Source of the DNA: Caldithrix abyssi
GTDB lineage: Bacteria > Calditrichota > Calditrichia > Calditrichales > Calditrichaceae
DNA length: 50,780 nucleotides
Direction of reading: 5' to 3'
Assembly: GCA_011369465.1 (NCBI GenBank)
Contig: DRQG01000140.1
Span: 1 to 50,780 of the forward strand
Each line of letters begins with the position of its first letter. Position 1 is the stretch's first letter. A program made the position numbers and the translations under genes. The notes beneath the pieces were generated by a model. It was given only the letters and a program-made list of their open reading frames with translations, searched no databases and was not told where the DNA came from. This document shows positions 1-49,489 of this stretch, in pieces.

Positions 1-1791
1 GTCATTAAAAATCTGCGTAAAAATATTACCGTTACACAAGTTAAAAATACAAATATTTTCAGACTATCCGTTCGATCAACCAACCCCCAAATGGCGCAAA
101 TATTAGCAAATACCATAGCAGAGAAATATCGTTTAACCCGTCTTGCCCAAAAACAACAGACGGTACACTATACCTTTGAGTTTGTAGATAACCAACTTAA
201 AAATATCCGCGAAAAACTGAATGAGGCAGAGTTTAATCTTAGCCGGTTCAAAAGTGATTTCCACCTGGTGGATATTACCGAGAACTCCAAGGAAATACTG
301 GATTTTTTATCGGAACTCGAATCGGAGAAGATTAAAACCGACATGGAACTTGCAGAATATGAAAATAAAGTCTTCCACATGAAAAAGCAGTTATCCGACA
401 AAGGGTATTTTGACCAAACTTATTTAACTCCAGGAAGAACTGACGGGGAACGCTCTCCCTTTTCCATACTGTTGCAGCAACTATCCGATGCAGAAATTCG
501 TCGGTTGGAACTTTTGCAAAAAAGAAAAAGTAGTCATCCGGATGTTGTTACCATAGATGAACAAATAGCTCAAATAAAATCTAAACTTTCGGAGTACAAT
601 CAGAACACGCTGATCAGTTATCAGATTATTATTAATTCTTTGCAGAAAAAAAAGTACAGTTTAAAAAAGCTTATTGATAAATATTCCGTAAAAATTAAAA
701 ATCTTCCTGATAAGGAGAGCAAACTGATCAACTTGACGCGTGCCAAAAACGTTTACGAAAAAATGTTTACCATGTTACTGGATAAAAGAGAAGAACTGCG
801 CATGGCCGAACTTTCCAAATTACAGGATATTGTTGTAGTTGATCCGGGCAGGTTACCCATCGAACCGGTGGCTCCACGTAAAATACTTAACCTGATTATA
901 GGTTTTTTATTAGGGTCTATCATCGGACTTACGCTGATTTTTGTCTGGGATTATGCTGATAACAAAATAAAAGACGTTGGAGATCTGGAGAACAATTTTG
1001 ACTTTCCCATTTTGGCAATTTTTCCCCAATATGGTAATGATGTTAAAGAAAAAATAGATAATGCTGACACAGTTAACGAGCGGCTTGTATCCCTTATGGA
1101 AGAACAATCGGTTTTTCTGGAATCATATCGTTTATTGCGTACCAGGTTATTGCAGGCAAAGCAAAAAGACAATGCCTTTTTGTTTACCAGCGGTGAAGAG
1201 GACACGGGTAAAACCACTATTGTAGCTAATTTGGGTATTAATATGGCTAAAGGAGGTCGCAAAATATTAATTATTGATGGGGATTTAAAAAAAGCGGGGA
1301 TATCCCGATTTTTTGATATTCCGAAATCTTTTCCCTCGATCAAGGATTTCCTTATGAATGAAAACTCTTTGCCCATCCTGTTTAATCCCTTCAAAGATAC
1401 AGAAACCCAATTACATTTGAGGATTCTCAGTGCAGGGAGTGGAAATGTGGAAAATTCCAGTGAACTTCTTGAATTGCCTAAGTTGAAAGAATTTCTACAT
1501 TTAGCGCGGAATAACTATGATTTTATCCTGATTGACACACCCCCTGTTACACGTATTATCGACACACTGGTACTAGGAAACCTGGTTAAAGAAGTTTTGA
1601 TGATTGTCAAACCTCGTCATACAATAAAAGACGGATTGAAATTTGCGATAGAAGAGCTTGGACATGCCGACCTGAATATCATCGGTTTTGTACTTAACGC
1701 ATGTAACCTTAACAGTTCTCCGCATCGCTATAAATATGGTTACGGATATGGATATTATAAAAAGGAGAATGAACTCCATCTACAACAATAA
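1..1791 (+). CDS. Polysaccharide co-polymerase / bacterial tyrosine (BY) kinase, Wzc-like. The 5' end is cut by the window edge, because the frame is open from nt 1 upstream of the listed Met at 91.
   Basis: Walker A P-loop SGEEDTGKTT at about 1189-1215. Walker A'-like ILIIDGDLKK. Walker B-like DFILIDTPP. C-terminal tyrosine cluster YKYGYGYGYY at about 1726-1761. The N-terminal part is coiled-coil-rich, as expected for a Wzz/GumC chain-length domain. Frame 1 has no stop between nt 1 and 91. Confidence 0.8.
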   Translation, partial: VIKNLRKNITVTQVKNTNIFRLSVRSTNPQMAQILANTIAEKYRLTRLAQKQQTVHYTFEFVDNQLKNIREKLNEAEFNLSRFKSDFHLVDITENSKEILDFLSELESEKIKTDMELAEYENKVFHMKKQLSDKGYFDQTYLTPGRTDGERSPFSILLQQLSDAEIRRLELLQKRKSSHPDVVTIDEQIAQIKSKLSEYNQNTLISYQIIINSLQKKKYSLKKLIDKYSVKIKNLPDKESKLINLTRAKNVYEKMFTMLLDKREELRMAELSKLQDIVVVDPGRLPIEPVAPRKILNLIIGFLLGSIIGLTLIFVWDYADNKIKDVGDLENNFDFPILAIFPQYGNDVKEKIDNADTVNERLVSLMEEQSVFLESYRLLRTRLLQAKQKDNAFLFTSGEEDTGKTTIVANLGINMAKGGRKILIIDGDLKKAGISRFFDIPKSFPSIKDFLMNENSLPILFNPFKDTETQLHLRILSAGSGNVENSSELLELPKLKEFLHLARNNYDFILIDTPPVTRIIDTLVLGNLVKEVLMIVKPRHTIKDGLKFAIEELGHADLNIIGFVLNACNLNSSPHRYKYGYGYGYYKKENELHLQQ

Positions 1792-1939
1792 TAAAAGTTG
1801 AGCAATTATTACTCAGTTATTCAAACAGATTCTTATCTTAGATATTTAATCCGGTTTGTATTTCCTTTTAGGGTATAGTTTGGCATATATTTTGAAGATA
1901 GGTTTTGTGGCGTAAACGAACGGATAAACAGGACTCAAA

Positions 1940-3211
1940 ATGGGAAACCGGAAAAATTCTAATATAAACTTTTATTTTTTTGTGCTATATATATTTATCG
2001 GTTTAGCCGGTGCACAGGAAAAAACACTCGTTCAACCGATAACGGATCCGGATGTTATTTTATATCCTGAGCCACAAATTGATCGGCCTGCTTATTTACA
2101 ACCACTAACAGACCCTGTGTTTAAAGCGCCGGTCATTCGGATAACAGGTGACGCCGGTACACCGGTATTGGACGGCCAATGGGCTTCGATAGCCCGTCAC
2201 CATTATTCCAAAGATCAACCCTGGAATGCTGATCAGACACTTATTCGAATTGACCGCAATCAGAGCTCACCAAATCCGATTTACCTGGATGGACAGACCT
2301 ACCAGGTGTTATTCAGTAAAAGCAGCCCCGGAGAAGACCGTTGGCATCCCCAAAATCCGGATGTGCGTATCTATGTTAGGGATAATGAAATCGGATTATG
2401 GAACATACATACCGACAATATTACCGTTATTAAATCTTTTAAGGATTATACAAATCTTAAATTCGGTCCTTATGAAGGAAACTGTTCCTACGATGGACGG
2501 TGGATTGCCCCTTTAGGCACACGGTCGGATGGCAAAAAGGTAACTTTTGCTTATGATATGGAAGCAAAGAAAAAATATCCTGATATTGTGCTTGACGGAT
2601 ATGATATCGATTGGGTGTCGATTTCGGCTTTGGGAAATTATATAGTGGTAAACGCTACCATTAACGGCAAAAGAGATAACACACTTGTTTTTGATATTTA
2701 CGGTAAACAAATGGGTTCAATTTGGAGCGAATATGGCCGTCCCAGTCACTATGACTTGACCGTAGATCAAAATGGTGACGAAGTGGCGGTCGGTGTTTCA
2801 AAATCCGCCCCGGATGAAGGGCGGGTAATTAAAAGGCGGTTGAGCGATGGCACAGTTACCGTATTGACAAAGGGAGGCTACGCCAGCCATACATCGGCAC
2901 GTAATTATAACCGCCCCGGTTGGGTGTATGTCAGCTTTCAGTATCGCGGTGATAAATGGCCGCCTTATCTTGATGAAATCGTTGCCGTAAAACTGGATGG
3001 TAGTATGAAAGTAGAGCGGCTTGTACATATGCATACCATCTTAAATGGTTATTATACCGAGGCCCATGCGGTACCGTCCCCGGATGGTAGCAGAGTGATG
3101 TGGGCCAGTAATTGGGATAACGCAAACGGGCCCGTAAATTCCTATGTGGTGGATTGGCGTCCCGCTATATCCGCCCCGGAGAACATTCAAATAAAACCAA
3201 CAGAGCGTTAG
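1940..3211 (+). CDS. Exported hypothetical protein with an N-terminal signal peptide, embedded in the polysaccharide locus.
   Basis: N-terminus MGNRKNSNINFYFFVLYIFIGLAGAQEK has a hydrophobic h-region followed by AQ. No recognisable catalytic motif. Confidence 0.5.
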   Translation: MGNRKNSNINFYFFVLYIFIGLAGAQEKTLVQPITDPDVILYPEPQIDRPAYLQPLTDPVFKAPVIRITGDAGTPVLDGQWASIARHHYSKDQPWNADQTLIRIDRNQSSPNPIYLDGQTYQVLFSKSSPGEDRWHPQNPDVRIYVRDNEIGLWNIHTDNITVIKSFKDYTNLKFGPYEGNCSYDGRWIAPLGTRSDGKKVTFAYDMEAKKKYPDIVLDGYDIDWVSISALGNYIVVNATINGKRDNTLVFDIYGKQMGSIWSEYGRPSHYDLTVDQNGDEVAVGVSKSAPDEGRVIKRRLSDGTVTVLTKGGYASHTSARNYNRPGWVYVSFQYRGDKWPPYLDEIVAVKLDGSMKVERLVHMHTILNGYYTEAHAVPSPDGSRVMWASNWDNANGPVNSYVVDWRPAISAPENIQIKPTER

Positions 3212-3244
3212 ATACGTTCCCTCCGATTTTCTTTACTATGCCAA

Positions 3245-4777
3245 ATGAAAAAACTTAAAAATTTCTTACTCGTATCCATTTCTACCTATTTTAAGCGGGT
3301 TCTAAACCTCGTATTGCAGGTGATGTTATCCACCCTTTTCGGCACCGGAAGGGTTATGGATGCATTTTTCGTTGCTATCGCCGTTCCTCGTTTCATTACC
3401 GATGTTCTAATGGTTTCCTCCAAAAATATTCTCATTCCCAAATTGATTGAGGTGGAAAAAAATGAGAATAAAAAGGATTTTAAGGTAGAACTATTTAACA
3501 ACATTTTGTTTCTTACAATAGCTATTGCCATCTCGGTTATTATCTTTTCCAACCAGATGATCTCTTTGGTCGCTCCCGGAATTCCCGAAGATATTCAAAT
3601 TCAAAGTAGATATTTGTTGATTGCGGCTGCAGGACTTATCGTCCTTGAGGGACTGAACCACTATCTGACCAGTATATTTAATGCCAGAGAAGAATATGTG
3701 TATATTTCTGTCCTTCCGATTATGAGTGGTATTGTGACTTTGGCTTTATTCTATCTTTTATATAATCGATTTAATTTATATGCACTTATAATCGCCTGGA
3801 GTATGAGTTATACGATACAACTTATCATTTTTTATAATGCGCTGAAAAAACGATTTGTTTTTAGAAATATTAAGATTCGATTCAAACCGTTCAGCAGCGA
3901 GTTGATCGAAACGGTAAGGCTGGCCTGGCCACTCCTGCTGTCTGCTGTTTTTATTAATATTATTCCGGTATTTGATAAATTTTTTGCTTCCTTTCTACCC
4001 CAGGGGAGTATTTCCTTTCTGAGTTATGCGGAAAAACTAAACATGGCCATTATGGTTATCCCTTTTTCATTTATGACTATATTTTTGCCTGATCTGGCTA
4101 AATCGGTGGTGGCAGGTAATAAGAACGTTGTAAAAGAAAAACTACAAAAAAGTTTGATCAATTCGCTTTTTGTAGTTGTTCCTGTAATTGTATTTATATT
4201 TTATCATTCTACTACCATTGTAAGCCTGGTGCTGGGCTACGGTAAATTTGACCAATACTCGGTTGCACAAACCGGACTGGCGCTTAAGTTTTATGTGGGT
4301 TCCGTACTGGGTTACAATCTTGTGGTTGTTTCCACTAATCTTTTGTATAGTATTAAAAAAACCAAAATTGTTGCCGCATTATATTTAGCAGGTGCTGTCT
4401 TTAACATTATATTGGCCTTTGGCCTTAGCAAAATTCTCGGTTTCAAAGGTATCGCTTTGGCTTTTTCCATATCTTATGCTCTTTTAGCTATCGCTTTTAT
4501 TGCCTTTATCCACTTTTTTGTCATTCGCCTTTTCCAGTGGGAATTTATTATCCATCTGACTAAAGTGTTACTGTTAGCGGTTTTCTCCCTGATATTTTTT
4601 CATTTCATTAGTCCGGATACTGATCCGTTGCATCCGGATAAAATTCATTTATTACTCACCTTTTTATTTTCCATGATAAAATATTCCGGCTTCATTGTTC
4701 TGCTTCTCTATTTATTATCTTTTAAAAAAGTACATATTTTTTTAAAACTTCATTTTCAAAAAAGTACTATCGATTAA
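3245..4777 (+). CDS. Oligosaccharide flippase of the MOP superfamily, Wzx/MurJ-like polysaccharide biosynthesis protein.
   Basis: 510 aa with about 12-14 predicted transmembrane helices throughout. AT-rich, Ile/Leu/Phe-rich composition. Positioned next to a Wzy-like gene. Confidence 0.7.
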   Translation: MKKLKNFLLVSISTYFKRVLNLVLQVMLSTLFGTGRVMDAFFVAIAVPRFITDVLMVSSKNILIPKLIEVEKNENKKDFKVELFNNILFLTIAIAISVIIFSNQMISLVAPGIPEDIQIQSRYLLIAAAGLIVLEGLNHYLTSIFNAREEYVYISVLPIMSGIVTLALFYLLYNRFNLYALIIAWSMSYTIQLIIFYNALKKRFVFRNIKIRFKPFSSELIETVRLAWPLLLSAVFINIIPVFDKFFASFLPQGSISFLSYAEKLNMAIMVIPFSFMTIFLPDLAKSVVAGNKNVVKEKLQKSLINSLFVVVPVIVFIFYHSTTIVSLVLGYGKFDQYSVAQTGLALKFYVGSVLGYNLVVVSTNLLYSIKKTKIVAALYLAGAVFNIILAFGLSKILGFKGIALAFSISYALLAIAFIAFIHFFVIRLFQWEFIIHLTKVLLLAVFSLIFFHFISPDTDPLHPDKIHLLLTFLFSMIKYSGFIVLLLYLLSFKKVHIFLKLHFQKSTID

Positions 4778-4791
4778 TTATTACAGAAAGA

Positions 4792-5982
4792 TTGATTCGC
4801 ATGGTCAGAAGATGTCTCATCGTTCTGCTTGCCATCAGTATCCCCTTAATGAAGATTATTGAGATAGGTGGGAAAAAAATAAATTTTGCCGTTTGTGATT
4901 TCGTACTGATCCTAATTCTTATTCATATTATGCTTACTTTCTTAAGCAATAGAAAAGAACTCGTTTTCCCCAACCTGGCTTTGTTTTACTTGTTCGTAGC
5001 GGTTACTTTAATATCCACTCTTGTTTCGATGATCTGGATTGCTAAGACGCAATCGGTTTTTTTCACTATGGTCGAAGTTATTAAATTTTTGGTAGTGGTC
5101 ATTTATTTTTTCATTTTTTATTTTTATCTGGAAACCACAGACGAAATTCATCTTTTTTTCAAATATTGGGTGATTATTTCAGTTTTTGAAGTACTTTTGG
5201 GGCTGTTTGGTCTGGTGACGCATAATCCGGATTTTTCATTGGATTACCGTATCCAGGGCTCATTTGCTAATCCAAATTTATTTGCCATGTATCTCAATGC
5301 GTCCGTTTATATATCGCTGTATTTATATCTCAAGTTTCAACAAAAAATCTACCTTTTTGCCACTCTGTTTTTTATTTTCGGTATCATAGTTAGTGCCTCG
5401 CGCGGCGCGTTGCTTGGGCTGACGCTTTCATTTCTTTTCTTTATTTTATATAAAAACAAATATAAACTGCGCATCATTCTATCGTTGTTTTTTGTGGCAC
5501 TGGTTTTTTCATTTTCCCTGGCCTTCACCGATATCGATTTATCGTATAATATCAGCCGTCTCGAAACCTTTTCAAGACTGGATAGCGAAGACAACCTGGG
5601 TGAACGTACTCATCTCTGGAAAATGGGCATTAAAATTATTGAGAATTATCCCTTTTTAGGGGTGGGTAAAGGAAACTTTATTTTCGCTGCCAATAACTTA
5701 GTGGAAACGGAAGGCACAAAATTTAACGCCGCTCACAACACCTATATTAGTATTGCCAGCGAAACGGGAATTCTAAATCTTTTAATCTTTCTGGGACTGC
5801 TGACTCATGTTTTTTTAAATCTGTTTTGGTACGTTAGGGCAAATAATTTGCTGCCAAAAATTATACTTACCATACTTTTAGCTTTCGTTACTCAGGCTCT
5901 GGTCATGAACATAGAAAATATCCGCTTTTTTTGGGGATTTTTGGCAATAGGTTTTGGCATCGAAAAATATCAACACGCTTAA
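4792..5982 (+). CDS. O-antigen polymerase or ligase-like (Wzy/WaaL family) integral membrane protein.
   Basis: 396 aa polytopic membrane protein with a large loop near the C-terminus (NLGERTHLWKMGIKIIENYPFLGVGKGNF), typical of the Wzy_C/O-antigen ligase domain. Sits between the flippase and the sugar-modifying genes. Confidence 0.6.
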   Translation: MIRMVRRCLIVLLAISIPLMKIIEIGGKKINFAVCDFVLILILIHIMLTFLSNRKELVFPNLALFYLFVAVTLISTLVSMIWIAKTQSVFFTMVEVIKFLVVVIYFFIFYFYLETTDEIHLFFKYWVIISVFEVLLGLFGLVTHNPDFSLDYRIQGSFANPNLFAMYLNASVYISLYLYLKFQQKIYLFATLFFIFGIIVSASRGALLGLTLSFLFFILYKNKYKLRIILSLFFVALVFSFSLAFTDIDLSYNISRLETFSRLDSEDNLGERTHLWKMGIKIIENYPFLGVGKGNFIFAANNLVETEGTKFNAAHNTYISIASETGILNLLIFLGLLTHVFLNLFWYVRANNLLPKIILTILLAFVTQALVMNIENIRFFWGFLAIGFGIEKYQHA

Positions 5983-6040
5983 TCCTAAGCTGAATAGATT
6001 AAGGAACGCATAGTTCAAGGAAAATTAACATTTTAAACCA

Positions 6041-7072
6041 ATGAATCATAACACATCCTCCAATCCCGCCGTATTTGTACTTAGCCTCGATACCGAACTG
6101 GCCTGGGGAAATTTTGTACGGGTGAAAGACCCTCTAAAAAAAACTCAGATGTTTCGTACACGGTATTGTATCCAGCAACTGCTCGATTTGTTGGAAACTT
6201 ACAATATTCGTGCCACTTGGGCGGTGGTTGGCCATTTAATGCTGGATGCCTGTCATCCGGACGAAAACGGTGTGAAACACCCTCAGGCAATCCGGCCTGC
6301 CTATAGCTGGCACCCCGGCGACTGGTTCGAGGACGATCCCTGTACATCATTGCAAGAGGATCCGCTGTGGTACGGTATGGACATCGTAAACAAAATCCGT
6401 TCTTGCGCCGTACCCCAGGAAATTGCTTCCCACTCTTTCGCCCATCAAATATTCGGAGACCCGGGATGCCACTGGGCCTGTGCCGATACGGACATCCGGC
6501 TGGCGGTTTTTGCGGCACAGGCATTAAATATTCAAATGGATTCGTTTGTCTATCCTAAAAACAGCATTGCCCATCAAACCGTACTGGCCAAATATGGGTT
6601 CCGAATATACCGTGGCGAAGGAACAGAGTGGTACAATCGATTCCGCCACCCCTTACTACGAAAAATACTCCATTTTCTGGACGATTTGCTGGCCGTGCCG
6701 CCGGCGGCGGATACGTTGCATCGGGATAACGATAACCTGTTTTATACCAACGGTAATATGATGTACCAGTCCATGGAAGGACTGCGTAAGCTCATTCCGC
6801 TTAGGGCCAGGGTACGAAAGGCAAAAATGGGTATAAATAAAGCGGTTGCGCAGGGAAAAATTTTTCATCTGTGGTTACATCCTTTTAATCTGGCCAGCGA
6901 TCCTACCCGCCTTTTGGCCGGATTGGAAGAAATTTTCAAACATGTAAAAAATCTTGAAGATGCAGGACGATTGGTCAATCTGCCGATGAGAGAGTTGCCT
7001 GCATTCTTTGGCATTAAACCAGACCCAGCCGATGTGCTGATCAATGAAGGTACTGCAAATTACATCCGTTGA
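6041..7072 (+). CDS. Polysaccharide deacetylase-like protein, NodB / carbohydrate esterase 4-like.
   Basis: N-terminal VFVLSLDTELAWG is a variant of NodB motif 1 (TFDDG). HSFAHQ matches the metal-binding NodB motif 2 (H-S/T-x-x-H). Read by motif only. Confidence 0.45.
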   Translation: MNHNTSSNPAVFVLSLDTELAWGNFVRVKDPLKKTQMFRTRYCIQQLLDLLETYNIRATWAVVGHLMLDACHPDENGVKHPQAIRPAYSWHPGDWFEDDPCTSLQEDPLWYGMDIVNKIRSCAVPQEIASHSFAHQIFGDPGCHWACADTDIRLAVFAAQALNIQMDSFVYPKNSIAHQTVLAKYGFRIYRGEGTEWYNRFRHPLLRKILHFLDDLLAVPPAADTLHRDNDNLFYTNGNMMYQSMEGLRKLIPLRARVRKAKMGINKAVAQGKIFHLWLHPFNLASDPTRLLAGLEEIFKHVKNLEDAGRLVNLPMRELPAFFGIKPDPADVLINEGTANYIR

Positions 7073-8234
7073 TGAAACGGTAAAACATCTGCTTTTGCCG
7101 TTGATCGACCGCTTACAGGATAACGGGTTTACCGTGGAAACCGTCTGTTCGCGTGGTCGCTACAGCGATCCGTTACGTCGGCAGGGCTATGTAATCCATA
7201 ATGTGTCTGTTCCCCGTTCCCTATCTCTCTGGGCCATCCTGAAAAATATCCGCGCATTATACCGGCTTATGCGTACAAATCAATATGATATCATTCATGT
7301 ACATGCTCCTGTTTCTGCGTTTACGGGCCGAATAGCGGCCAAATTATATGGGAAGGCCGTAATTATTTATACGGTTCACGGGTTCTATTTTCACGAAAAT
7401 ATGTCTCGTCTTAAATATCATTTGTTTTATACCATCGAGAAAATCCTGGCTTACTGTTGCACCCATATCATGTTTTTCCAGAGTGAAGAGGATTACAAAT
7501 TAGCCAAAGAAAAAAAATTCTTACGCGGCCAAAATCTTTTTTATATCGGTAACGGTGTAGATGTGCACGTGCGGTTTAATCCGGCTTCCGTTTCAGCGGT
7601 AGAAGTGAACAGATTGCGCAGTGAACTTGGCCTGGAACCGGAATACATTGTAGTTACTTTTATAGGCCGTTTGGTATATGAAAAAGGAGTAATGGATTTA
7701 CTAAGAGCTTTTACAGCAATCGACATGAATAACGCAATTTTGTTGGTTGTGGGATCGGCCTTAGCTACGGATCGCGATCGAATACCGGAAGAAGAATTAA
7801 AACCCTATCGAAATCATCCGCGCATTATTTTTACCGGCTTTCGGGAGGACATTTCGCAGATATTGGCTCTTACGGATATTTTTTGTATGCCCTCTTACCG
7901 CGAAGGTAAACCTCGTTCAGTTTTAGAAGCGATGGCCATGAATTGTGCCATTATAGCCGGCAATATACGGGGCTGCCGCGAAGAGGTGATTCCCGGCCGG
8001 AACGGCTTCTTATTTGACATTAAAAATGTTGAAGACTTAAGCGACAAACTGATTTCATTACTTAGTAATATTCCTCAACTTAAAATCTTTAAGAAGAACT
8101 CTCATACTATTGCCCGTGCCGTTTATGATGAAGAAACGGTTCTTAACAAGCAAATGGAAATTTATGAACGACTTCATTCCAAAGGTATAAAAGATTTGGA
8201 GTTCAATATTTCACCTACCAGGATTCATAGCTGA
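7044..8234 (+). CDS. Glycosyltransferase family 1 (GT4-type).
   Basis: C-terminal E-x7-E signature EGKPRSVLEAMAMNCAIIAGNIRGCREEVIPGRNGFLF at about 7903-8016. Overlaps the upstream ORF by 29 nt, so the start may lie further downstream. Confidence 0.8.
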   Translation: MKVLQITSVDETVKHLLLPLIDRLQDNGFTVETVCSRGRYSDPLRRQGYVIHNVSVPRSLSLWAILKNIRALYRLMRTNQYDIIHVHAPVSAFTGRIAAKLYGKAVIIYTVHGFYFHENMSRLKYHLFYTIEKILAYCCTHIMFFQSEEDYKLAKEKKFLRGQNLFYIGNGVDVHVRFNPASVSAVEVNRLRSELGLEPEYIVVTFIGRLVYEKGVMDLLRAFTAIDMNNAILLVVGSALATDRDRIPEEELKPYRNHPRIIFTGFREDISQILALTDIFCMPSYREGKPRSVLEAMAMNCAIIAGNIRGCREEVIPGRNGFLFDIKNVEDLSDKLISLLSNIPQLKIFKKNSHTIARAVYDEETVLNKQMEIYERLHSKGIKDLEFNISPTRIHS

Positions 8235-8244
8235 TAGCTTAACT

Positions 8245-8898
8245 ATGTACAAAAAAATCATATCACAGCGAATTAAGATTGTGTTGGACTTTTGTCTGGC
8301 ATTGATTAGCCTGATACTTTTATCTCCGCTTTTTGTCATCATTTCTCTGGTAATAAAACTGGATAATCCGGGAAAAGTTATTTTTAAACAGGCGCGCGCC
8401 GGAAAAAACGGTAAACTGTTTTATATATATAAATTCCGGACTATGGTAGAGAATGCCGAAAACATGGGCCTGGGTTATGGCATTGCAAAAAATGATCCCC
8501 GTATAACCCGCGTGGGCCGGTTTCTGCGTAAAACAAGCCTGGATGAACTCCCCCAGCTGTTTAATGTGTTAAAAGGAGAGATGAGTTTTGTCGGCCCGAG
8601 ACCCGGTTTGCCTTATCAGGTAGAGCGTTATTCGGCTAAGCAGCATCGACGTTTACTGGTTAAACCGGGTATTACCGGACTGGCTCAGGTAGAAGGACGG
8701 GGGCTGATTCCCTGGTCAAAACGAATCGAGTATGACCTATGGTATATCGATCATTGGTCCCTTTGGCTGGATTTAAAAATCATGCTCAGGACGGTTAAAA
8801 ACATTATTCTTTCCAAAGGATATACCGAAGAACAGACTCCGGATATTATCGAAGATTTTGAAACATCATCACCACAAAACAAAGAGCGTTATGTTTAA
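8245..8898 (+). CDS. Small bacterial sugar transferase, the undecaprenyl-phosphate sugar-1-phosphate transferase that initiates the glycan (PglC/WbaP C-terminal type).
   Basis: Single N-terminal transmembrane helix. Diagnostic [21 protein letters not shown] motif at about 8536-8598. Confidence 0.85.
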
Positions 8899-9595
8899 AC
8901 GATTTAACGACCTGACGGAAGATGATATAAATTGTGATTTGCAAATACATACAAATCGTACCGACGGCCAGGCCGGCATTGAGGAAATCGTAAATCGGGC
9001 ACGGCAGATCGGATTAAAAAGAATTGCCTTCACCGAACATGTCCGTAAAGATACCGACTGGTTTAACGAGTTTGCAGATGAGATTGAAGAGGTACGGCGC
9101 AGGACCGGCGGAATCGAAATATATATCGGATGCGAAACCAAGATACTCAATGTACACGGAACGTTGGATGTGAGCGAGCGCATACTCGATCGCTGTGAGA
9201 TCATTTTGGGTAGTGTGCATCGTTTCCCGGATGGAGCAGGCGGCTATCTGGATTTTACATGGATTACCGAAGATGATTTTTCCCGTATGGAGTTTGAATT
9301 GGCCAGCGCTCTGCTACTTTATGCTCCCATCGATGTACTGGCGCATCCGGGAGGCATGTACGCCCGTCATCATGGAAACTTTCCGCAAAACCTGCTGGCC
9401 GAACTGCTGGAACTGAGTAAAAAACGCAATGTTGCCGTGGAACTGAACGCGTCGTATCTGAAAGATATTAAAACCGTCCTTCCGGTTTACCGCGAAATAA
9501 ATCCTTATGTTTCTATCGGATCGGATGTGCACCGTCTGGAGGAATTGGGACTGTGTCGTGATTCACTGCGTTTACTTGGAGTGGGCCGATCATGA
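8891..9595 (+). CDS. PHP-domain metal-dependent phosphoesterase, possibly the CpsB/YwqE-type phosphotyrosine phosphatase partnering the BY-kinase.
   Basis: CDLQIHTNRTDG and FTEHV His/Asp metal-binding motifs of the PHP fold. The likely true start is ATG 8891, overlapping the upstream stop as ATGTTTAA. The ORF track lists Met 8858. Confidence 0.6.
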   Translation: MFKRFNDLTEDDINCDLQIHTNRTDGQAGIEEIVNRARQIGLKRIAFTEHVRKDTDWFNEFADEIEEVRRRTGGIEIYIGCETKILNVHGTLDVSERILDRCEIILGSVHRFPDGAGGYLDFTWITEDDFSRMEFELASALLLYAPIDVLAHPGGMYARHHGNFPQNLLAELLELSKKRNVAVELNASYLKDIKTVLPVYREINPYVSIGSDVHRLEELGLCRDSLRLLGVGRS

Positions 9596-10644
9596 AAGTA
9601 TTTGTCACCGGTGCAGGCGCCCTTTTAGGACAGGGCATTATCAAAAGCTTGTGCCTTGCCGAAACAAAATATACCATAATTGCGGCTGATCCGAATCCGC
9701 ATGCGGTTGGTCTGTATTGGGCCGATAAAGCCTATCTAATTCCGATGGCCGACAGCGAAGAGTATTTAGAGCGCATCTGGTCGATCCTTAAAGCGGAAAA
9801 ACCGGAAGTCATTCTCATCGGTACGGACGTTGAGCTGCTTATCTTTGCCGAAAATAAAGATTTTATAGAAAATAATACCGGATCCCATGTTATTGTAAGT
9901 CCGCCGCAGGTTATCCGCATCGCCGATGATAAATGGCTCACCTATAAATTTTTAAAAGAAAATGGTTTCCCATACCCGCAATCGGTATTGGCGGATGAAG
10001 CGGATCGCCTGGTCCAAAGCTGCGGTTTCCCGTTGATTGTTAAACCCCGCCGGGGAGCGCGATCTGCCGGTGTACGCACTGTTCGGAACGAACATGAACT
10101 ACGTGAGGCTCTGCAGGCCACATCGGAACCGATTATTCAGGAATGTGTAGCCGACGCCCATCACGAATATACCAGCGGTGTACTCACTCTGGGTACAGAA
10201 ATACGATCCGTCGTTACTATGCGACGCGATCTGCGGGACGGCAACACCTACCGCGCCTATGTTCTACCCGGATTTGAGGCCAATGATATGCTAGCCGAAA
10301 TTGCTAAAAGACTGCGTGGTTTTGGACCGCTCAATCTGCAATTCCGCATGGATGACGGTCAGCCCAAAGTGTTCGAAATAAACGCCCGCTTTTCCGGTAC
10401 AACCCCACTGCGGGCCTATGCCGGTTTTAATGAAGTGGATTTCATGATACGTTACGTTGTAAAGGGAGAAAGAATTCCTCCGCCCAAATTATCCCCGAAG
10501 ATACTGCTGCGTTATCTGGATGAAATCATAATAGAACCGGGTAGTTATGAACATCTGGTTTATAAAAAACAGGGCGAAAATCTCTCCTTCACGAAGCCGG
10601 GGCATCATTTATCCCGAGGCAATAATGACGATGAAAGAATTTAA
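9592..10644 (+). CDS. ATP-grasp domain protein, a carboxylate-amine ligase.
   Basis: Rossmann-like N-terminus MKVFVTGAGALLGQGII. Central ATP-grasp region PLIVKPRRGARSAGVR...EYTSGVL. C-terminal FEINARFSGT resembles the ATP-grasp catalytic loop. Start codon overlaps the upstream stop. Confidence 0.65.
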   Translation: MKVFVTGAGALLGQGIIKSLCLAETKYTIIAADPNPHAVGLYWADKAYLIPMADSEEYLERIWSILKAEKPEVILIGTDVELLIFAENKDFIENNTGSHVIVSPPQVIRIADDKWLTYKFLKENGFPYPQSVLADEADRLVQSCGFPLIVKPRRGARSAGVRTVRNEHELREALQATSEPIIQECVADAHHEYTSGVLTLGTEIRSVVTMRRDLRDGNTYRAYVLPGFEANDMLAEIAKRLRGFGPLNLQFRMDDGQPKVFEINARFSGTTPLRAYAGFNEVDFMIRYVVKGERIPPPKLSPKILLRYLDEIIIEPGSYEHLVYKKQGENLSFTKPGHHLSRGNNDDERI

Positions 10645-11749
10645 AATACCTCTCTCTCAACCGGATATTACCGATTTGGAACGCCGTTATGTAATGGAAG
10701 TGCTGCAAACACCCAACCTGAGTCTTGGCCCGAAACTACCGGAGTTCGAGAAAAAAGTGAGCGATTATGTGGGAACCCGATTTGCCGTTGCGGTGAACAG
10801 TGGCACCAGTGCCTTACATTGCTGTATTAAAAGTTTTGGGATCGGCCCGGGCGACGAAGTGATTACGTCGCCGTTCAGTTTTATTGCCACATCCAATGCC
10901 GCTCTGTTCGAAGGCGCGAAACCGGTTTTTGTCGATATCGATCCGGATACCTACAACATCGATTTCCGGCAAATTGAAGAAAAAATAACCGAACGCACCA
11001 AAGCCATTATTCCCGTTCATGTGTTTGGCCTTCCTGCGGAGATGGATGCTATAAACAAAATTGCTAAGAAATACAATCTTCGTGTCCTCGAAGACGCAGC
11101 AGAAGCTATTGGCGCAGAATACAAAAAGCGTAAGGCTGGCAGCCTGGGTGACTGTGCCGTATTTGCTTTTTATCCTAATAAACAGATAACCACCGGCGAA
11201 GGCGGCATAATTGTAACCGATAATGAATCTTTGGCTGCACTATGTCGCAGTTTGCGCAATCAGGGTCGTGGTGATACCTCCGGCTGGTTACAGCATCAAC
11301 GTCTCGGTTATAATTACCGCCTATCCGATATCAATTGTGCTCTGGGTATCGCCCAGATGGAACGTCTGTCCGAAATATTGGACAAAAGAACGCGCGTAGC
11401 CCAATGGTATCTGGAACAATTACATGATGTGCCCGAATTAACCACCCAGCAAATCCCGGCCAATTGTAAAAAAAGTTGGTTTGTATTTGTGGTAGCCCTT
11501 TCGCCTTTATACAGTAAAAAAAGCCGTGATGAAATATTATCCCATTTAAGAAAGAAAGGTATCGCATGTAGTAATTACTTTAGTCCCATTCATCTGCAAC
11601 CCTTTATGGCCGCCCGGTTCGGTTATAAAGAAGGCGATTTTCCGGTAACGGAAAGTTTGTCCAAACGAACCATTGCCCTTCCATTCTTTGCCAATCTAAG
11701 CAAAGAAAACGTTCGATATGTTACAGACGTTTTGAAAAACAGTCTGTGA
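10625..11749 (+). CDS. DegT/DnrJ/EryC1/StrS-family PLP-dependent nucleotide-sugar aminotransferase (PglE/WbpE-like).
   Basis: FAFYPNKQITTGEGGII contains the PLP lysine in its characteristic context. GTSALH motif also present. Probable start MTMKEF at 10625; the ORF track lists an earlier Met at 10547, inside the previous gene. Confidence 0.88.
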   Translation: MTMKEFKIPLSQPDITDLERRYVMEVLQTPNLSLGPKLPEFEKKVSDYVGTRFAVAVNSGTSALHCCIKSFGIGPGDEVITSPFSFIATSNAALFEGAKPVFVDIDPDTYNIDFRQIEEKITERTKAIIPVHVFGLPAEMDAINKIAKKYNLRVLEDAAEAIGAEYKKRKAGSLGDCAVFAFYPNKQITTGEGGIIVTDNESLAALCRSLRNQGRGDTSGWLQHQRLGYNYRLSDINCALGIAQMERLSEILDKRTRVAQWYLEQLHDVPELTTQQIPANCKKSWFVFVVALSPLYSKKSRDEILSHLRKKGIACSNYFSPIHLQPFMAARFGYKEGDFPVTESLSKRTIALPFFANLSKENVRYVTDVLKNSL

Positions 11750-11814
11750 GAACTCTCCTTCTTAGCGCTTCTGTTTAATCATCATAAGTATTAAGTCCTG
11801 CCATTTTAACCTTT

Positions 11815-13746
11815 GTGAGGTGTGTTATGTCCAGAGTAAGTGTGTTTTTTGAGAATTCTCTGGAGAGAATTCAAAACAAATCCGTAATTATTTTTATTGA
11901 TTTTCAGCTCATCTTTCTCTCTTACATTATTTCTTTCTTCCTGCGCTTTGATTTTATTATTCCATCTCAATTTCTGAAAATGATGTTTTTTACCCTGCCT
12001 GTTGTGCTTGGTATTAAAATATTTACCTACATTTATTTCAATATCCACCGGATAATCTGGAAATTTACCGGTATCAGCGATCTGATTAAAATAATTAAAG
12101 TAAGCTCCTTCAATAATGCACTGTTTGCGCTTATTCTGTTCGCGCTAATCGGGTTTAAAGGATATCCGCGTTCCGTTATTCTTATTGACTGGTTTTTAAC
12201 TATTATGTTTCTCGGAGGCAGCCGTATAGCGTGTCGGCATTTGGCTACCCTTATTAAGGATTCAAATAACCACCGTAACCCCTCTACGACTAAAAAGTGT
12301 ATCATACTCGGTTCAGGTGAAGCAGCCGAAGGACTTATACGCGAGATGGTTTCGGGAAAGATTGATTATATTCCACTGGCCATCCTGGATGATGATCCTA
12401 AAAAGTGGGGCTTGTATTTGCATAATGTAAAGATATATGGTCCTATTAAAGACATCGGGGTACTGTTGGACAAATTTAGAATAGATGAAATCGTTATTGC
12501 CATACCCTCGGCGACACGAGCTCAAATGGCTCAAATTCTAAAGCATTGTAAACCTTGCATTGCTAAAAATATAAAATGCAAAACCGTACCCGGCATCAAC
12601 GAGATCTTATCCGGACTGCATTCCCTTACAAAACTGAGAGAAGTACGTCTGGAAGATCTGATGAATCGGGAACTGGTTATGATTAATCAGGTGGAATTGC
12701 GCAGAGAATTCGCCCATAAAACGGTTCTGGTTACCGGTGCGGCCGGTTCAATCGGTTCCGAGCTGGCCAGACAGATTTACTCCTATAATATTACCAAATT
12801 AATCCTACTCGATCGTAACGAAAACAATTTATTATATCTGGAAAAAGAACTCGAAACCCGATATCCGGAGATACGTTACGAGACCGTGGTTACGGATATT
12901 ACAGACAAAGCCATGGTTGAGAGGGTATTTAAACAATATCGTCCGCAATACATTTTTCATGCTGCGGCATACAAGCATGTACCATATATGGAAAAATTTC
13001 CGGCCGAAGCGGTTAAAAACAATGTGTACGGTACCTACGTATTAGCCGGTCTGGCGGAAAAACACCATGCGACAAAATTTGTCCTTATTTCTACGGATAA
13101 AGCGGTATGCCCAACCAGCGTCATGGGGTGTACGAAACGGGTTGCCGAAATGAGCTTATTACATTTCTTTAAAGATTCCGATACCAGTTTTATAATTGTT
13201 CGTTTTGGCAATGTATTGGGCAGCAATGGCAGTGTCATACCTCTTTTTAAACAACAGATTGAAAAAGGCGGTCCTCTTACTGTAACGCATCCGGAAATGA
13301 GGCGTTATTTTATGACCATCCCGGAAGCGGTAAGCCTGACCTTAAAAGCCGGTTCAATTGGCGAACATGGCGATATTATGATACTGGACATGGGTGAACA
13401 AATTCCGATAATTCAAATTGCCGAAAACCTTATTCGACTATCCGGATATACTCCTTACAAAGATATCCCCATACAGATAAGCGGTATACGGCCCGGCGAA
13501 AAATTGTATGAGGAGTTATGGTATAAAGATGAAAATCCCATTCCCACCAATCATCCCAAAATATTTAAAGCCACACAATTTTTTCATAAGAACGGCCTCG
13601 ATGTAGAAGCCTATAACACGGTCATTCAATACAGCCTTTCAGGAGAACAAAACGATAGAATATTAAAATTGCTACGGCATCTGGTGCCGGACTTTCGTAC
13701 GCCAAAAATCGGCAGAATAACTAAGAAAACCTATATTTACAATTAA
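11815..13746 (+). CDS. Membrane-anchored UDP-GlcNAc 4,6-dehydratase (PglF/CapD/WbpM family polysaccharide biosynthesis protein).
   Basis: Four N-terminal transmembrane helices. NAD-binding VLVTGAAGSIGSEL at about 12724-12765. Catalytic AAAYKHVPYME (YxxxK) at about 12961-12993. Confidence 0.88.
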   Translation: MRCVMSRVSVFFENSLERIQNKSVIIFIDFQLIFLSYIISFFLRFDFIIPSQFLKMMFFTLPVVLGIKIFTYIYFNIHRIIWKFTGISDLIKIIKVSSFNNALFALILFALIGFKGYPRSVILIDWFLTIMFLGGSRIACRHLATLIKDSNNHRNPSTTKKCIILGSGEAAEGLIREMVSGKIDYIPLAILDDDPKKWGLYLHNVKIYGPIKDIGVLLDKFRIDEIVIAIPSATRAQMAQILKHCKPCIAKNIKCKTVPGINEILSGLHSLTKLREVRLEDLMNRELVMINQVELRREFAHKTVLVTGAAGSIGSELARQIYSYNITKLILLDRNENNLLYLEKELETRYPEIRYETVVTDITDKAMVERVFKQYRPQYIFHAAAYKHVPYMEKFPAEAVKNNVYGTYVLAGLAEKHHATKFVLISTDKAVCPTSVMGCTKRVAEMSLLHFFKDSDTSFIIVRFGNVLGSNGSVIPLFKQQIEKGGPLTVTHPEMRRYFMTIPEAVSLTLKAGSIGEHGDIMILDMGEQIPIIQIAENLIRLSGYTPYKDIPIQISGIRPGEKLYEELWYKDENPIPTNHPKIFKATQFFHKNGLDVEAYNTVIQYSLSGEQNDRILKLLRHLVPDFRTPKIGRITKKTYIYN

Positions 13747-21754: not shown

Positions 21755-24700
21755 ATGCCTCAAAACAATAACAACATAAACCCGCTGGAGTATTTTCGCT
21801 TACGACCGATCAAGGCGGCCAAGGTTTCCGAAATCAGCGAAGCGACGGCTTCCTCGCCTCTGTCGCCGGCCGAACGGGTTAATTTCCACATCGGACACCC
21901 GCTGCAGGAAGAAGAGCTGAGCGCGTTTTATTTTCGTCTAACCGTTTCCGCAGCGGAAGAAGAGGAACACAGCGAAGCAGGCCGGGCTGATTTTCTGCGC
22001 CGTTGCATTGCCCAATGCGCGCCGTATATGCCGCGCGGCGGGTATGCCGCAGCCGACGGACATCCTCTGCTGGAACATCTGCAAAACTGGCTTAAAGGAC
22101 AGAGCGAGCCGCTGGAATACGAATCCGGCCTTCGTCGGGAAATTATTTTCGGCAGCGGCGGCGTTACCGAAAATTTGCGCGTATTGTTTACCGCCCTGCA
22201 GCGATTCCTGCGCTACCAACCGGCGCAGATTTGCCTTTTCCAAAGCGAGCTACCGGAATTTTTACGTAACTTTCCTCCTTTACAGTTTTTATACTATGAT
22301 GAAGCCTCGTCTCTGCCGGATTATCTGCAAAACTTACTAAACGCCCATCCGCAGCGGCCCCTGTTTTTAATCTATCAAACCGTGCTGCCGGAAGCGGTGC
22401 GGCGTGAACTGCGGGAAATCAGTCTGCAAAAGCCCTTGTTTTTTATCGAGCTGAATGACGCGCCCAATCATTTGTCCATGGCCCGTGAGGCGCGCATGCA
22501 GGAAAGGGTACTACGTTTTCTGACGCCCAAAATATTCCACCCGGCGCTGCAGCATCTGTCCACCATATTCATTTTGGGCAGCCACGATTATCTTAAAGTG
22601 CTGGAAACCGTACACTTCGAACTGAAAGGCACGCCGGCCGCCGCCGAAATAGAATGGCTGACTTATGCGCTGGACAACCATATCCTGCCTCCGGAAAATG
22701 AGTCCTCATCTTTGGAGGCTCCGTCCGACCGGCACCGGCATACCAGCCCGTTCATTTCCACCGGTGAGCGGCTCGTGCGCAAATTCGGGGGATTGGTCAG
22801 CGGACAACCGCTTTTACTGGAAACGGCCGCAACCGTGGTAGAGCAATACAGTCAGCGGCAGCAAGAGCGTTTTTCCTCTTTGTATCGTTTCATAAATCGT
22901 TTACCGTTTGTGGAAAGGGAACAGGGTGAAAACCTCGACCATATTCCGGCCTTAAAAATACTGGACACCCTGCTGAAACAACCGCAGGATAAAGCCTTTG
23001 CCGCATTACTGCAGGAAAACTTCCTGTCCGCCTTCCTGCGTCATCACCCGGAATACGAGATGGAACACTGTGCGGTGGTCAGCGGATCATCGCGTACGGC
23101 GCTGAGCCTTTTGGGAAAACATTGCGGAGTCAGCGAGGTGATCAGTCCGGATTTGGGCTGGACGTACGAACACTGTTTCCCGCGGGTCAGCTTTGTTCCG
23201 CTTAAAAGCGATCTGTCGCTGGACAGCGAGGCTATCCTGCAAACCGTGCAGCGCAAAAGGGAAGCGGACGCCCGCTGGACCGAGTACGGCGCGGTGATAC
23301 TCAACAATCCCCACAACGCCAGCGGCAGTGTTTTCGACAGTAGCCGGATGAGCGAGCTGCTGCGCCGGCTGCTGAAAGCCGGTGTGCGGGTCATCGATGA
23401 TCTGTCTTATCAGAATGTAAACCCCGGCGAAACCTGGCGGGAGATTCCCACGCTCAAGCAGCTCACCGCCGAATTGCGGCGCAACGGTTACCTTTCCGAA
23501 GAACAGGCGGCGCGCCTGATTACCGTTCATTCGCTGTCCAAAACGGACGCCTTTGCCGGAGGTCGTCTGGCCGTTATCGAACTTCCCGAAGAGGATTTGC
23601 GGGATAGCTACCGGAAAATCACCGCGCATATCTACCCTAATATCATGGCCGTTTTGCTGGCCTATCTGTTTTACCGCAATCCGCCGGAAAAACTGAACGC
23701 TTACTGGCATTTGCGCAACCGCATTTTTGACCGCCGCATGCAAGCTATCGAGCAGGCCTTGCAGGAACTGCCCGCCAACCGTAATCCCTACGGCATCAAA
23801 GTGAAACGTCCCTCCGGAAGCATGTATCCGCGCATGGTCATCGAACGCCTGCCCGAGGGGCTTTCGCTGGACTGGCTTTCTTCGGGGCTGGCGGTACAGG
23901 GTATCGGGCTGGTGCCGCTGTCCACGTTTTCGCGCACGGCGGAAGGGTACGAGCTGGGACGTAAATCCTTCCGCTTGACGCTGGGCGGCGCTTCCGGCGC
24001 AGCGGAGCTGAAGAACAAAACCCGCCGCGTGATCATCGACCTGAACCGTATGCTGGCCCGCCAGGATGAAGGATACAACCGCAAACGCTTTGCCGTGCGC
24101 ACAACCATCGACGCCGGCCGGGGCTTCTTCCCCGGCGCCTGGGAAGCCTGGAAAGGCATCGATGAGGAAATCCGCCGTTGGGCCGTGCAGGCGCTGGACT
24201 TTTATCTGAAAAAACAACCCGCAGGCAGCGAACGGCATAAATTATTAACCGAATTCGGGAAAGAGTACCTGCCGCATCGATTGGCCGTGTACCGCCAGCG
24301 GCTGCAGGATCGGCTGCATATTGGCGGCCGGTTAATCGAAGCCGGACGAGGGCCGGGCAAACCGGAACTGCTGGAGGTTCTGGAAAGAGAATTTTACAAA
24401 GAGACGCTGCCGGAACGGGGCGAACGGTTCCGCCGCCGTTTATTTGACCGCACGGTGCACCCCACGCAGATGTATGCTCTGCAAAGCGAAGCGGTCTTTA
24501 ACGGGATAATAGATCGCTTGCTTACGGACGGAGATATTTCGCGAGAGATATTACGCCGCGCCGGAAAAACCCTGGCCGAAGAGTATCTGGGCCGCAACGT
24601 ACCCGTCAGTTCAGTGCAGGAGGCCGAGGAACTGCTGCTTGATCTCAACGACGTCATCGCCGCCGAAGAATTTGCCCGCTGGAACGGTGATTTCCGCTTC

Positions 24701-45397: not shown

Positions 45398-45438
45398 AGT
45401 TCAAAATCTTTCGTCGTATAATCCGTTCCATTCTCAAT

Positions 45439-46365
45439 TTATTGTTGTTCCTTAAACCAGCGGTAGGTTTCAGTAATACCCTGTTCCAGACCGATTTTAG
45501 CCGACCAACCCAGTTTGTTAAGGCGGCTCACGTCCAGCAGTTTACGGGGCGTTCCGTCAGGTTTGCTTGTATCAAAGGTCAGTTCACCCGTATACCCCAC
45601 AATCTGTTTAATCAACAAGGCCAGTTCTTTGATGGATATATCCTGGCCGACACCGATGTTTACAAAATCGTTTCCGGAATAATTTCGCATTAAGAACAGG
45701 CAGGCGTCCACCAGGTCGTCCACGTGTAAAAACTCCCTTTTAGGGTTGCCTGTACCCCAAATTTGCACAACCGGCGCCTGCTTCAGTTTAGCTTCGTGAA
45801 ATTTACGGATCAGTGCCGGAAGCACGTGGGAGGTTTGCAGATCGAAGTTATCATTCGGCCCATACAAGTTGGTGGGCATAACGGAAATGAAATCCGTGCC
45901 GTATTGATCATTGTAAGCCTGGCACATTTTGATACCGGCGATTTTGGCGATAGCGTACGGTTCATTGGTGGGTTCCAGCGGGCCGGTAAGCAGATGCTCT
46001 TCCTTCATAGGCTGAGGGGCGTGTTTCGGATAGATGCAGGAGCTGCCCAGAAAGAGCAGTTTTTTTACGCCGCTCAAATATGCGGAATGGATGATATTAT
46101 TCTGAATTTGCAAATTTTCATAAATAAATTGAGCGCGGTAAGTATTGTTAGCCAGAATACCGCCCACCTTGGCCGCTGCCAGAAATACAAAATCCGGTTT
46201 CTCAGTTTCAAAAAAACGACGAACAGCGCTTTGATCCAGCAGATCGAGTTCTTCTCTGCCGCGCAGCAACAAGTTTACAAAACCATCTTTTTGCAGCCGG
46301 CGCACAATAGCTGAGCCCACCATACCCCGGTGACCGGCAACGTAAATTTTACTTTCTTTTTTCAT
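45439..46365 (-). CDS. fcl: GDP-L-fucose synthase (GDP-4-keto-6-deoxy-D-mannose 3,5-epimerase/4-reductase).
   Basis: Near-collinear with E. coli Fcl: [80 protein letters not shown]. Confidence 0.93.
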
Positions 46366-46368
46366 TCT

Positions 46369-47442: not shown

Positions 47443-47482
47443 TCTAATTGCTCTCTTTCTGAATTATATTTGAATACATTGT

Positions 47483-48180: not shown

Positions 48181-48190
48181 AGCCTGTTTT

Positions 48191-48805: not shown

Positions 48806-48808
48806 AAT

Positions 48809-49464: not shown

Positions 49465-49489
49465 TTCCCTTACTCCTTTTTGATCAGCG

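Follow-up and report, generated by a model that had tools for sequence, protein, structure and literature searches.

A predicted ATP-grasp amide ligase coupled to a PHP phosphoesterase, in place of a PglD-type acetyltransferase, in a polysaccharide cluster of Caldithrix abyssi

The biochemical demonstration that ATP-grasp enzymes can N-acylate UDP-4-amino sugars dates from 2014, the year of the report on the UDP-yelosamine pathway, which consists of a dehydratase, the aminotransferase Pat, the ATP-grasp enzyme Pyl and a small phosphoglycosyl transferase (PGT) (Hwang et al. 2014, cited in PMC11626204 and PMC8987622). Pyl of Bacillus cereus ATCC 14579 is described as ligating 2-oxoglutarate to UDP-4-amino-FucNAc, and the genes are placed directly upstream of that for the small PGT (PMC11626204, PMC8987622). 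Another precedent is PglB2 of Neisseria, in which the PGT carries an ATP-grasp domain instead of the acetyltransferase domain; it yields the 4-glyceramido sugar 4-glyceramido-2-acetamido-2,4,6-trideoxyhexose (GATDH) (PMC11130364, PMC6959607). The subject of the present study is an ATP-grasp protein encoded at positions 9592-10644 of a 50,780-bp contig (DRQG01000140.1; the whole contig is hereafter called the window) from a metagenome-assembled genome of Caldithrix abyssi, together with the genes that surround it at 8245-13746. This enzyme most likely attaches an acid other than acetate to a 4-amino sugar, and because the gene of a PHP-family phosphoesterase is translationally coupled to its own, the likely chemistry shifts to one in which the acyl donor is phosphorylated and the phosphate is removed afterwards.

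Three further systems are relevant for comparison. In the flagellin type B locus of Clostridioides difficile ribotype 027 (RT027), the genes CDR20291_0244, CDR20291_0245 and CDR20291_0247 encode a FemAB-like protein, an ATP-grasp protein named "carbamoyl-phosphate synthetase" and an FdtB-like aminotransferase, respectively, and the terminal peptidyl-amido sugar is lost in the ATP-grasp mutant (PMC5207246). In Campylobacter jejuni, it was found that Cj1438C ligates a phosphorylated partner and that Cj1435 then dephosphorylates the product, giving the glucuronamide of the capsule (PMC11800397). In Tannerella, pseudaminic acid (Pse) carries an N-glyceroyl substitution; the genes for it are stated to be unknown and the basis of the substitution is called a "major challenge", and several genes of the Pse locus are unassigned (PMC5378307).

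A sequence-only reading of the window had named four genes at 8245-13746, and all four were recovered at these positions on the plus strand with strong family matches. They encode a PglC-type small monotopic PGT of 217 amino acids (8245-8898; Pfam Bac_transf, E 2e-71), the ATP-grasp protein, a DegT-family sugar aminotransferase dependent on pyridoxal phosphate (PLP) (10625-11749; Pfam DegT_DnrJ_EryC1, E 5e-125) and a PglF/CapD-type membrane-anchored UDP-GlcNAc 4,6-dehydratase of 643 amino acids (11815-13746; PseB and FnlA models at residues 299-584). The gene list was nevertheless incomplete, since a gene for a PHP-family metal-dependent phosphoesterase (8891-9595, plus strand; Pfam PHP, E 1.8e-14, a match to the generic PHP model alone) between those of the PGT and the ATP-grasp protein had been overlooked. 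The PHP open reading frame (ORF) extends from a TTG at 8858, and its likely start, the ATG at 8891, overlaps the PGT stop; an ATGA at 9592-9595 holds both the stop codon of the PHP gene and the start codon of the ATP-grasp gene. The DegT ORF is open from 10547, a typical N-terminus is obtained with the ATG at 10625, and this start precedes the ATP-grasp stop by 20 bp. The genes of the PGT, the PHP protein, the ATP-grasp protein and the DegT enzyme are translationally coupled.

The ATP-grasp protein (plus strand), a predicted carboxylate-amine ligase that is 100% identical to its NCBI entry, matched the Pfam families ATP-grasp_3, ATPgrasp_Ter and PylC-like_N (PF02655, PF15632 and PF21360). It also scored 391.6 bits over residues 1-317 against NCBIfam NF009402 (PRK12767.1-1; cut-off 218), a model named "carbamoyl phosphate synthase-like protein" with no tested function behind the name. 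The AlphaFold2 model had the ATP-grasp fold with a pLDDT of 94.8, and 2pn1, PurK, PylC and PurT were matched by Foldseek at E values of 1e-18 to 4e-22. Identity to the solved fold neighbours, namely 2pn1 (an uncharacterised structural-genomics protein), PurK, PylC, PurT, biotin carboxylase and carbamoyl-phosphate synthase, is at most 22%, and no close relative of known structure has been characterised. The residues K151, E192, R212, Q250, E262, N264, R266 and S268 are invariant; among these, K151, E262, N264 and R266 are the ones expected for binding of ATP and Mg. On account of this invariance and of the confident fold, the protein is predicted to be a competent carboxylate-amine (or carboxylate-activating) ligase.

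An exhaustive search yielded 367 cluster representatives of the ATP-grasp protein at E<=1e-30, and word-indexed searches returned thousands of relatives, 50-63% identical and spread across phyla, which are named solely "ATP-grasp domain-containing protein" or "carbamoyl-phosphate synthase large subunit". The contexts recovered for the family come from cyanobacteria, Chloroflexi, Myxococcota, Firmicutes, Flavobacteriia, Lentisphaerae, an archaeon and Sinorhizobium, and the family belongs to glycan loci, not to housekeeping functions.

In the PHP protein, the metal ligands H20, H50, E82, H110, H152, D212 and H214 are invariant among 14 homologues, and its nearest solved relatives are the PHP domains of YcdX and PolX. 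The enzyme would dephosphorylate the product of the ATP-grasp ligase. An UshA-like 5'-nucleotidase/Metallophos protein encoded elsewhere in the window (34056-35738, plus strand) was rejected as a phosphoesterase of the same kind, as it lies 20 kb off in an unrelated context.

The neighbourhood of the family was surveyed in loci gathered from named genomes (21), contigs of close homologues (7) and metagenomes (80), with the Sinorhizobium pSymB locus in addition. The initial genome scan, for which a single sequence served as the query, gave 21 loci only, many of which encode true carbamoyl-phosphate synthases (L011-L021) and were left out of the census. ORFs were labelled by means of seed proteins with families established in Pfam, and 35 loci were retained after de-duplication at 80% identity of the ATP-grasp protein, each with at least 2.5 kb on both flanks. 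A phosphoesterase was found near the ATP-grasp gene in 34 of the 35, and an adjacent short-chain dehydrogenase/reductase (SDR) of the Epimerase, RmlD or NAD_binding_4 type in 27. DegT genes occurred within 6 kb in 25 loci and small PGT genes within 4 kb in 21; a NeuB-type nonulosonic acid synthase was present in seven and a PglD-type acetyltransferase in two. Before de-duplication (39 loci), the phosphoesterases belonged to the unrelated folds Metallophos (23 loci), PHP (14) and HAD (1, in L002 only). Two gene orders recur, PGT-PHP-ATPgrasp-SDR-DegT and PGT-ATPgrasp-SDR-Metallophos-DegT(-PglF), with junctions that overlap by 4 bp. The cluster in the window has no adjacent SDR gene, as is also the case for a minority of the PHP-type loci (L001, L029, L037). 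The sole census locus without a phosphoesterase, L074, has a gene for a 136-aa cytidylyltransferase-like protein (PF01467; 3687-4097) which overlaps the ATP-grasp start, with a methyltransferase gene upstream; it is predicted to be another enzyme type acting on a small phosphorylated substrate. The genomic context of the family is consistent in suggesting a single job and a specific two-step chemistry, phospho-acid ligation and then dephosphorylation.

The same partners are also found as domains of single proteins. The ATP-grasp domain is fused to PHP in P0140, P0158 and L108, to Metallophos in P0204, to an SDR in P0178 and P0252, and to a PGT (Bac_transf) in P0216, P0275-277, L051, L052 and L058; P0216 is 36% identical to the ATP-grasp protein of the window, and a PGT::DegT fusion occurs in L096. 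When P0216 was used as the query, environmental fusions alone were returned and no Neisseria protein, and no Bacillus protein was present among the close homologues when a Firmicute homologue was used. Fusions of the ATP-grasp domain to a FemAB/Acetyltransf_6 (GNAT) domain are abundant (P0122, P0157, P0281-P0379; about 718 aa), named carriers being Verrucomicrobiota, including Chthoniobacter, and Deferrimicrobiaceae; they suggest a second acyl or aminoacyl transfer that follows the ligase step.

In the nonulosonic-acid clusters L003, L004 and L006 (flavobacterial and others), genes for PseB-like, DegT, Metallophos, ATP-grasp, SDR and NeuB proteins follow one another in this order. The cassette sits between the PseC-type aminotransferase and NeuB, which is the place of the N-acetyltransferase step in the canonical Pse pathway. 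In Clostridia, more distant relatives of the ATP-grasp protein (27-30% identity) that are encoded beside DegT have a small GNAT or WbqC as their coupled partner and lack a phosphoesterase, from which it follows that the link to a phosphatase is particular to the subfamily of the window.

Some loci contain additional genes next to the cassette. A pair encoding WbqC and the deacetylase PIG-L stands directly upstream of PHP-ATP-grasp in L022 (4816-6185), L028 (5931-7282), L034 (936-2288) and L108 (6715-8086), and its recurrence hints at an extra re-acylation at the 2-amino group. Between the small PGT and PHP/ATP-grasp genes of the myxobacterial and Chloroflexi loci L023 and L024 there are ORFs without a Pfam match, of 838 aa (L023, 5456-7972) and 615 aa (L024, 5427-7274). 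On pSymB of Sinorhizobium meliloti (L110, CP140955.1, 10581-16934; NC_003078.1, about 790-793 kb), a PHP-ATP-grasp-SDR triad is located directly after cysD-nodQ-cysQ, which serve the synthesis of 3'-phosphoadenosine 5'-phosphosulfate (PAPS). This triad has a sulfotransferase gene, a formyltransferase-like gene and a PglF-like gene as neighbours and is conserved on megaplasmids in 76 Sinorhizobium records as well as in Ensifer and Rhizobium; a link of the triad to sulfated glycans is possible.

No acetyltransferase was detected with Pfam and NCBIfam in the cluster at 91-13746, the left-handed beta-helix enzymes of PglD type included. The contig encodes a single hexapeptide-repeat acetyltransferase (48191-48805, minus strand); it belongs to a separate sugar-nucleotide set 34 kb off and was rejected as the missing PglD because it has no PglD N-domain and scored 87 bits against the 161-bit cut-off for NeuD/PglB/VioB. 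That the ATP-grasp enzyme acts in place of PglD and N-acylates a UDP-4-amino sugar is a well supported prediction, by reason of the synteny with DegT, PGT and PglF genes across phyla, the near absence of PglD, the PGT fusions, the position in nonulosonic-acid clusters and the published precedents. This replacement had already been proposed in the sequence-only reading, and synteny, fusions and precedents agree with it; the phosphoesterase step, on the other hand, had been missed. The ATP-grasp protein did not prove to be an unrelated housekeeping enzyme, its family being specific to glycan loci, and an acetyltransferase for this step was not found elsewhere in the locus, the single, distant hexapeptide protein of the contig not being of PglD type. 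The description of the modification as a "rarer decoration" has to be toned down; it is less unusual than was claimed, given the biochemical precedent from 2014.

The proposed pathway would begin with the PglF-type dehydratase, which by homology is expected to convert UDP-GlcNAc to a UDP-4-keto-6-deoxy sugar. The DegT enzyme would then aminate C4, the position and the stereochemistry both being putative. The ATP-grasp enzyme would subsequently make an acyl phosphate from a carboxylic acid and couple it to the 4-amino group, the job done by PglD with acetyl-CoA; synteny, fusions and published precedents argue for this step. Since the ATP-grasp protein nearly always has a phosphoesterase, from one or other of three unrelated folds, as its neighbour or fusion partner, the acid is proposed to enter as a phosphate ester, and the PHP enzyme would strip the phosphate off the amide product, in an order of events that follows the analogy to Cj1438C/Cj1435 of C. 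jejuni. Finally, the PglC-type transferase would load the finished sugar phosphate onto undecaprenyl phosphate, with which the repeat unit would begin. This pathway as a whole, with all five steps and with ligation of a phospho-acid before dephosphorylation, is considered moderately probable.

As for the acid, 3-phosphoglycerate is the leading guess; the product would then be a 4-N-glyceroyl sugar, as is the GATDH of Neisseria. Alternatives are O-phosphoserine, which would lead to an N-seryl sugar and would fit the associations with FemAB and GNAT proteins, and a phosphorylated 2-oxo acid, which is a candidate because a 2-oxo acid, 2-oxoglutarate, is accepted by Pyl. It may be guessed that 3-phosphohydroxypyruvate is used and the product then reduced, which would provide a role for the SDR of most loci; as the SDR is absent from the cluster in the window, this cluster would represent a two-enzyme version of the cassette. 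The more far-reaching proposal, that the ATP-grasp enzyme, a phosphatase of any of the three folds and usually a ketoreductase-type SDR form a system for glyceroyl-type N-acylation of UDP-4-amino sugars directly from 3-phosphoglycerate or 3-phosphohydroxypyruvate, is made tentatively and is given a low probability.

Several observations weigh against this five-step pathway. We know of no phosphatase partner that has been reported for Pyl or PglB2, and the substrate of Pyl, 2-oxoglutarate, is unphosphorylated. The S. meliloti triad has no DegT or PGT gene within 15 kb, and about 30% of the well-flanked loci have no DegT gene within 6 kb. A true PglD-family acetyltransferase gene immediately follows the ATP-grasp gene in L001, and one is nearby in L053; hence, a PglD-type acetyltransferase and the ATP-grasp enzyme can coexist. 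The frequently coupled SDR is given no firm role, and the target of the phosphoesterase could be something other than the acyl moiety. The exact sugar is likewise uncertain, because the DegT protein of the window resembles PglE and PseC no more closely than it does perosamine synthetase. Against NCBIfam, its best match was PseC (347 bits, below the cut-off), followed by LegC and ArnB, with all equivalog cut-offs missed, and among solved structures it matched perosamine synthetase (278 bits), ArnB, PseC (178 bits) and PglE (164 bits).

Other explanations of the cassette have to be weighed against the same evidence. An amino acid, possibly O-phosphoserine that is then dephosphorylated by the PHP enzyme, might be ligated to the 4-amino group, and the aminoacyl-amido sugar would be extended or capped by FemAB or GNAT enzymes in other loci. 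The common ATP-grasp::FemAB/Acetyltransf_6 fusions (P0122, P0157 and many 718-aa proteins) agree with this, as do the FemAB-like genes that adjoin the cassette in L001, L022, L053 and L068, the GNAT coupling of the clostridial relatives and the co-occurrence of FemAB, ATP-grasp and DegT genes, with a mutant phenotype, in C. difficile. It is nonetheless thought unlikely, given that FemAB and GNAT genes are absent from the window, that free amino acids require no phosphatase, and that the sole published sugar found for the PGT::ATP-grasp architecture, the product of PglB2, bears a glyceroyl group. The pairing of amidoligase and phosphatase is, on the other hand, precisely the characterised logic of Cj1438C/Cj1435, by which a sugar carboxylate (uronic or nonulosonic) would be joined to a phosphorylated amine, for example ethanolamine phosphate or serinol phosphate, and dephosphorylated by the PHP enzyme, the 4-amino sugar being left free or modified elsewhere. 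Such a carboxylate is supplied in the NeuB-containing loci, and the S. meliloti triad has neither DegT nor PGT genes nearby. This explanation is regarded as improbable: Cj1438C was rejected as a relative of the ATP-grasp protein, with no detectable profile similarity (hhalign probability 0.14%), and Pfam and NCBIfam revealed no UDP-sugar 6-dehydrogenase domain among the ORFs of the cluster. Moreover, the cassette is not accompanied by a PLP decarboxylase or class I/II transaminase for the phospho-amine, and the strongest associations of the family are those with DegT and small PGTs, PGT fusions included.

The amino group could also remain free. In AAT-type pathways a dehydratase, an aminotransferase and a small PGT suffice and no acetyltransferase is required; the cluster would then make a sugar of this kind, as in AAT-type zwitterionic polysaccharides, with PHP and ATP-grasp forming an independent cassette that makes or modifies another component. 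Some loci that have the pair do lack a visible DegT gene. Against this stand the translational coupling of the PGT, PHP, ATP-grasp and DegT genes, the fact that across phyla the ATP-grasp gene accompanies DegT and PGT genes but hardly ever PglD, and the fusions to PGTs; a free amine is accordingly held to be a poor prospect. PHP-family tyrosine phosphatases, for their part, are typical of Gram-positive capsule loci, and a GNVR/P-loop protein is encoded in the cluster; a CpsB/YwqE-type phosphotyrosine phosphatase could act on this BY-kinase-like protein (91-1791) independently of the ATP-grasp enzyme. This is very improbable, as no CpsB or YwqE structure was matched by the PHP protein at E<0.01, YcdX and PolX domains being nearer. 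A CpsB-type assignment was rejected on the sequence together with the PHP::ATP-grasp fusions (P0140, P0158, L108) and the finding that in other loci a Metallophos or HAD enzyme stands where PHP would be; furthermore, the pairing is found in many loci that have no Wzz gene. The pathway with phospho-acid ligation and dephosphorylation is preferred here.

The PGT and the dehydratase are encoded at the two ends of the precursor genes. The PGT scored 306 bits against TIGR03025, above the cut-off, and its best solved relatives are PglC structures (8e37/8g1n, 161 bits). The N-terminal region of the dehydratase is similar to the N-terminus of EPS_sugtrans, and its best solved relative is C. jejuni PglF (5bju; 269 bits, E 6e-79, residues 275-631). 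With the genes between them, they would make up that half of a polysaccharide cluster of Wzx/Wzy type which supplies the sugar precursor. This cluster occupies 91-13746 and has all its genes on the plus strand. The other half starts with the chain-length regulator or BY-kinase-type protein (91-1791; Pfam GNVR and the P-loop family AAA_31), followed by an ORF of 423 aa (1940-3211) with no Pfam or NCBIfam match. A MurJ/MOP-family flippase with the role of Wzx (3245-4777; Pfam MurJ, E 1.5e-44) and a protein of the Wzy-type polymerase/O-antigen ligase family (4792-5982; Pfam Wzy_C, E 7e-24) come next. A second ORF without Pfam or NCBIfam match, of 343 aa (6041-7072), precedes a GT4 glycosyltransferase (7044-8234; Pfam Glycos_transf_1 and Glyco_transf_4), which is probably the transferase for the second sugar of the repeat unit. 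The G+C content of the flippase/polymerase stretch (3001-6000) is 34-39%, compared with 40-49% in the precursor genes; low values in wzx and wzy of O-antigen loci are a pattern typical for horizontal exchange.

Outside the cluster, an ORF of 1853 aa (21755-27316, plus strand) has an aminotransferase class I/II domain (residues 428-743) as its sole family match, and the G+C content around it is 53-58%, against roughly 35-50% over the contig's first 21 kb. The contig end truncates another set of sugar-nucleotide genes (44300-50446, minus strand). This set comprises genes for a UDP-GlcNAc 2-epimerase, a GDP-fucose-synthase-like SDR, a GDP-mannose 4,6-dehydratase and a GFO/IDH/MocA oxidoreductase, the hexapeptide acetyltransferase that is not of PglD type, and small ORFs, among them one for an HI0074-family nucleotidyltransferase substrate-binding subunit (toxin-antitoxin-like).

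N-acylation of 4-amino sugars by ATP-grasp enzymes is itself already known, with Pyl, PglB2 and CDR20291_0245 as precedents. The version that is coupled to a phosphatase, and usually to an SDR, is widespread and was not found described in the searchable literature. In the literature searched there was also no description of an "ORF8" acquired along with pglB2, and the mentions of ATP-grasp and PHP in the Lipocone preprint were set aside as unrelated to the cassette. The N-acyl groups that 4-amino sugars and nonulosonic acids carry largely determine the antigenicity of bacterial surfaces, and for most of the non-acetyl groups no enzyme is, to our knowledge, known. If the proposed pathway is true, the misleading annotation "carbamoyl phosphate synthase-like" would be corrected, the prediction of glycan structures from sequence would become possible across many phyla and extend to the model symbiont S. 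meliloti, and enzymes would be provided for the chemoenzymatic synthesis of rare UDP-sugars. If the more far-reaching glyceroyl proposal holds, the long-sought genetic basis would be given to N-glyceroyl sugars such as the GATDH of Neisseria and the Pse7Gra of Tannerella and Vibrio vulnificus, and such sugars would be predicted in Calditrichota, cyanobacteria, Chloroflexi, myxobacteria, flavobacteria and rhizobia. Should only a role like that of Pyl or PglB2 hold, the protein would be a routine further member of a known enzyme class.

On comparing the cluster with the bacillosamine pathway of Campylobacter and Neisseria (PglF, PglE, PglD, PglC), it is seen that a PglF-type dehydratase, a DegT enzyme and a PglC-type PGT are likewise encoded in one operon, but that PglD is missing and the ATP-grasp and PHP genes stand between those of the PGT and the aminotransferase. 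The C. difficile locus shares the combination of an ATP-grasp gene with a DegT-family gene, and its FemAB-like gene has counterparts in the FemAB fusions and neighbours of the wider family; it differs from the window in that no phosphatase is reported there, whereas the window has no FemAB gene. Cj1438C/Cj1435 resemble the proposed chemistry in joining an ATP-dependent amide ligase, a phosphorylated partner and a dedicated phosphatase, of the HAD type, in a surface-polysaccharide locus. They differ in that Cj1438C is a TupA-like protein (PF14305, not matched by the protein of the window), uses a sugar carboxylate and a phospho-amine and acts on the growing polymer, and in that the phosphatase has another fold.

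Compared by description and context only, the Pyl system is like the window in that an ATP-grasp enzyme, which in the window would likewise replace the acetyltransferase, occurs together with a 4,6-dehydratase, a 4-aminotransferase and a small PGT. In PglB2, the ATP-grasp domain stands in place of the acetyltransferase domain of PglB, near the dehydratase and the aminotransferase; the PGT and ATP-grasp genes of the window are, in contrast, separate, with the PHP gene between them. The PGT::ATP-grasp architecture itself is found in the family (P0216, L051, L052, L058), and the glyceroyl product of PglB2 is compatible with a route through phosphoglycerate and a phosphatase.

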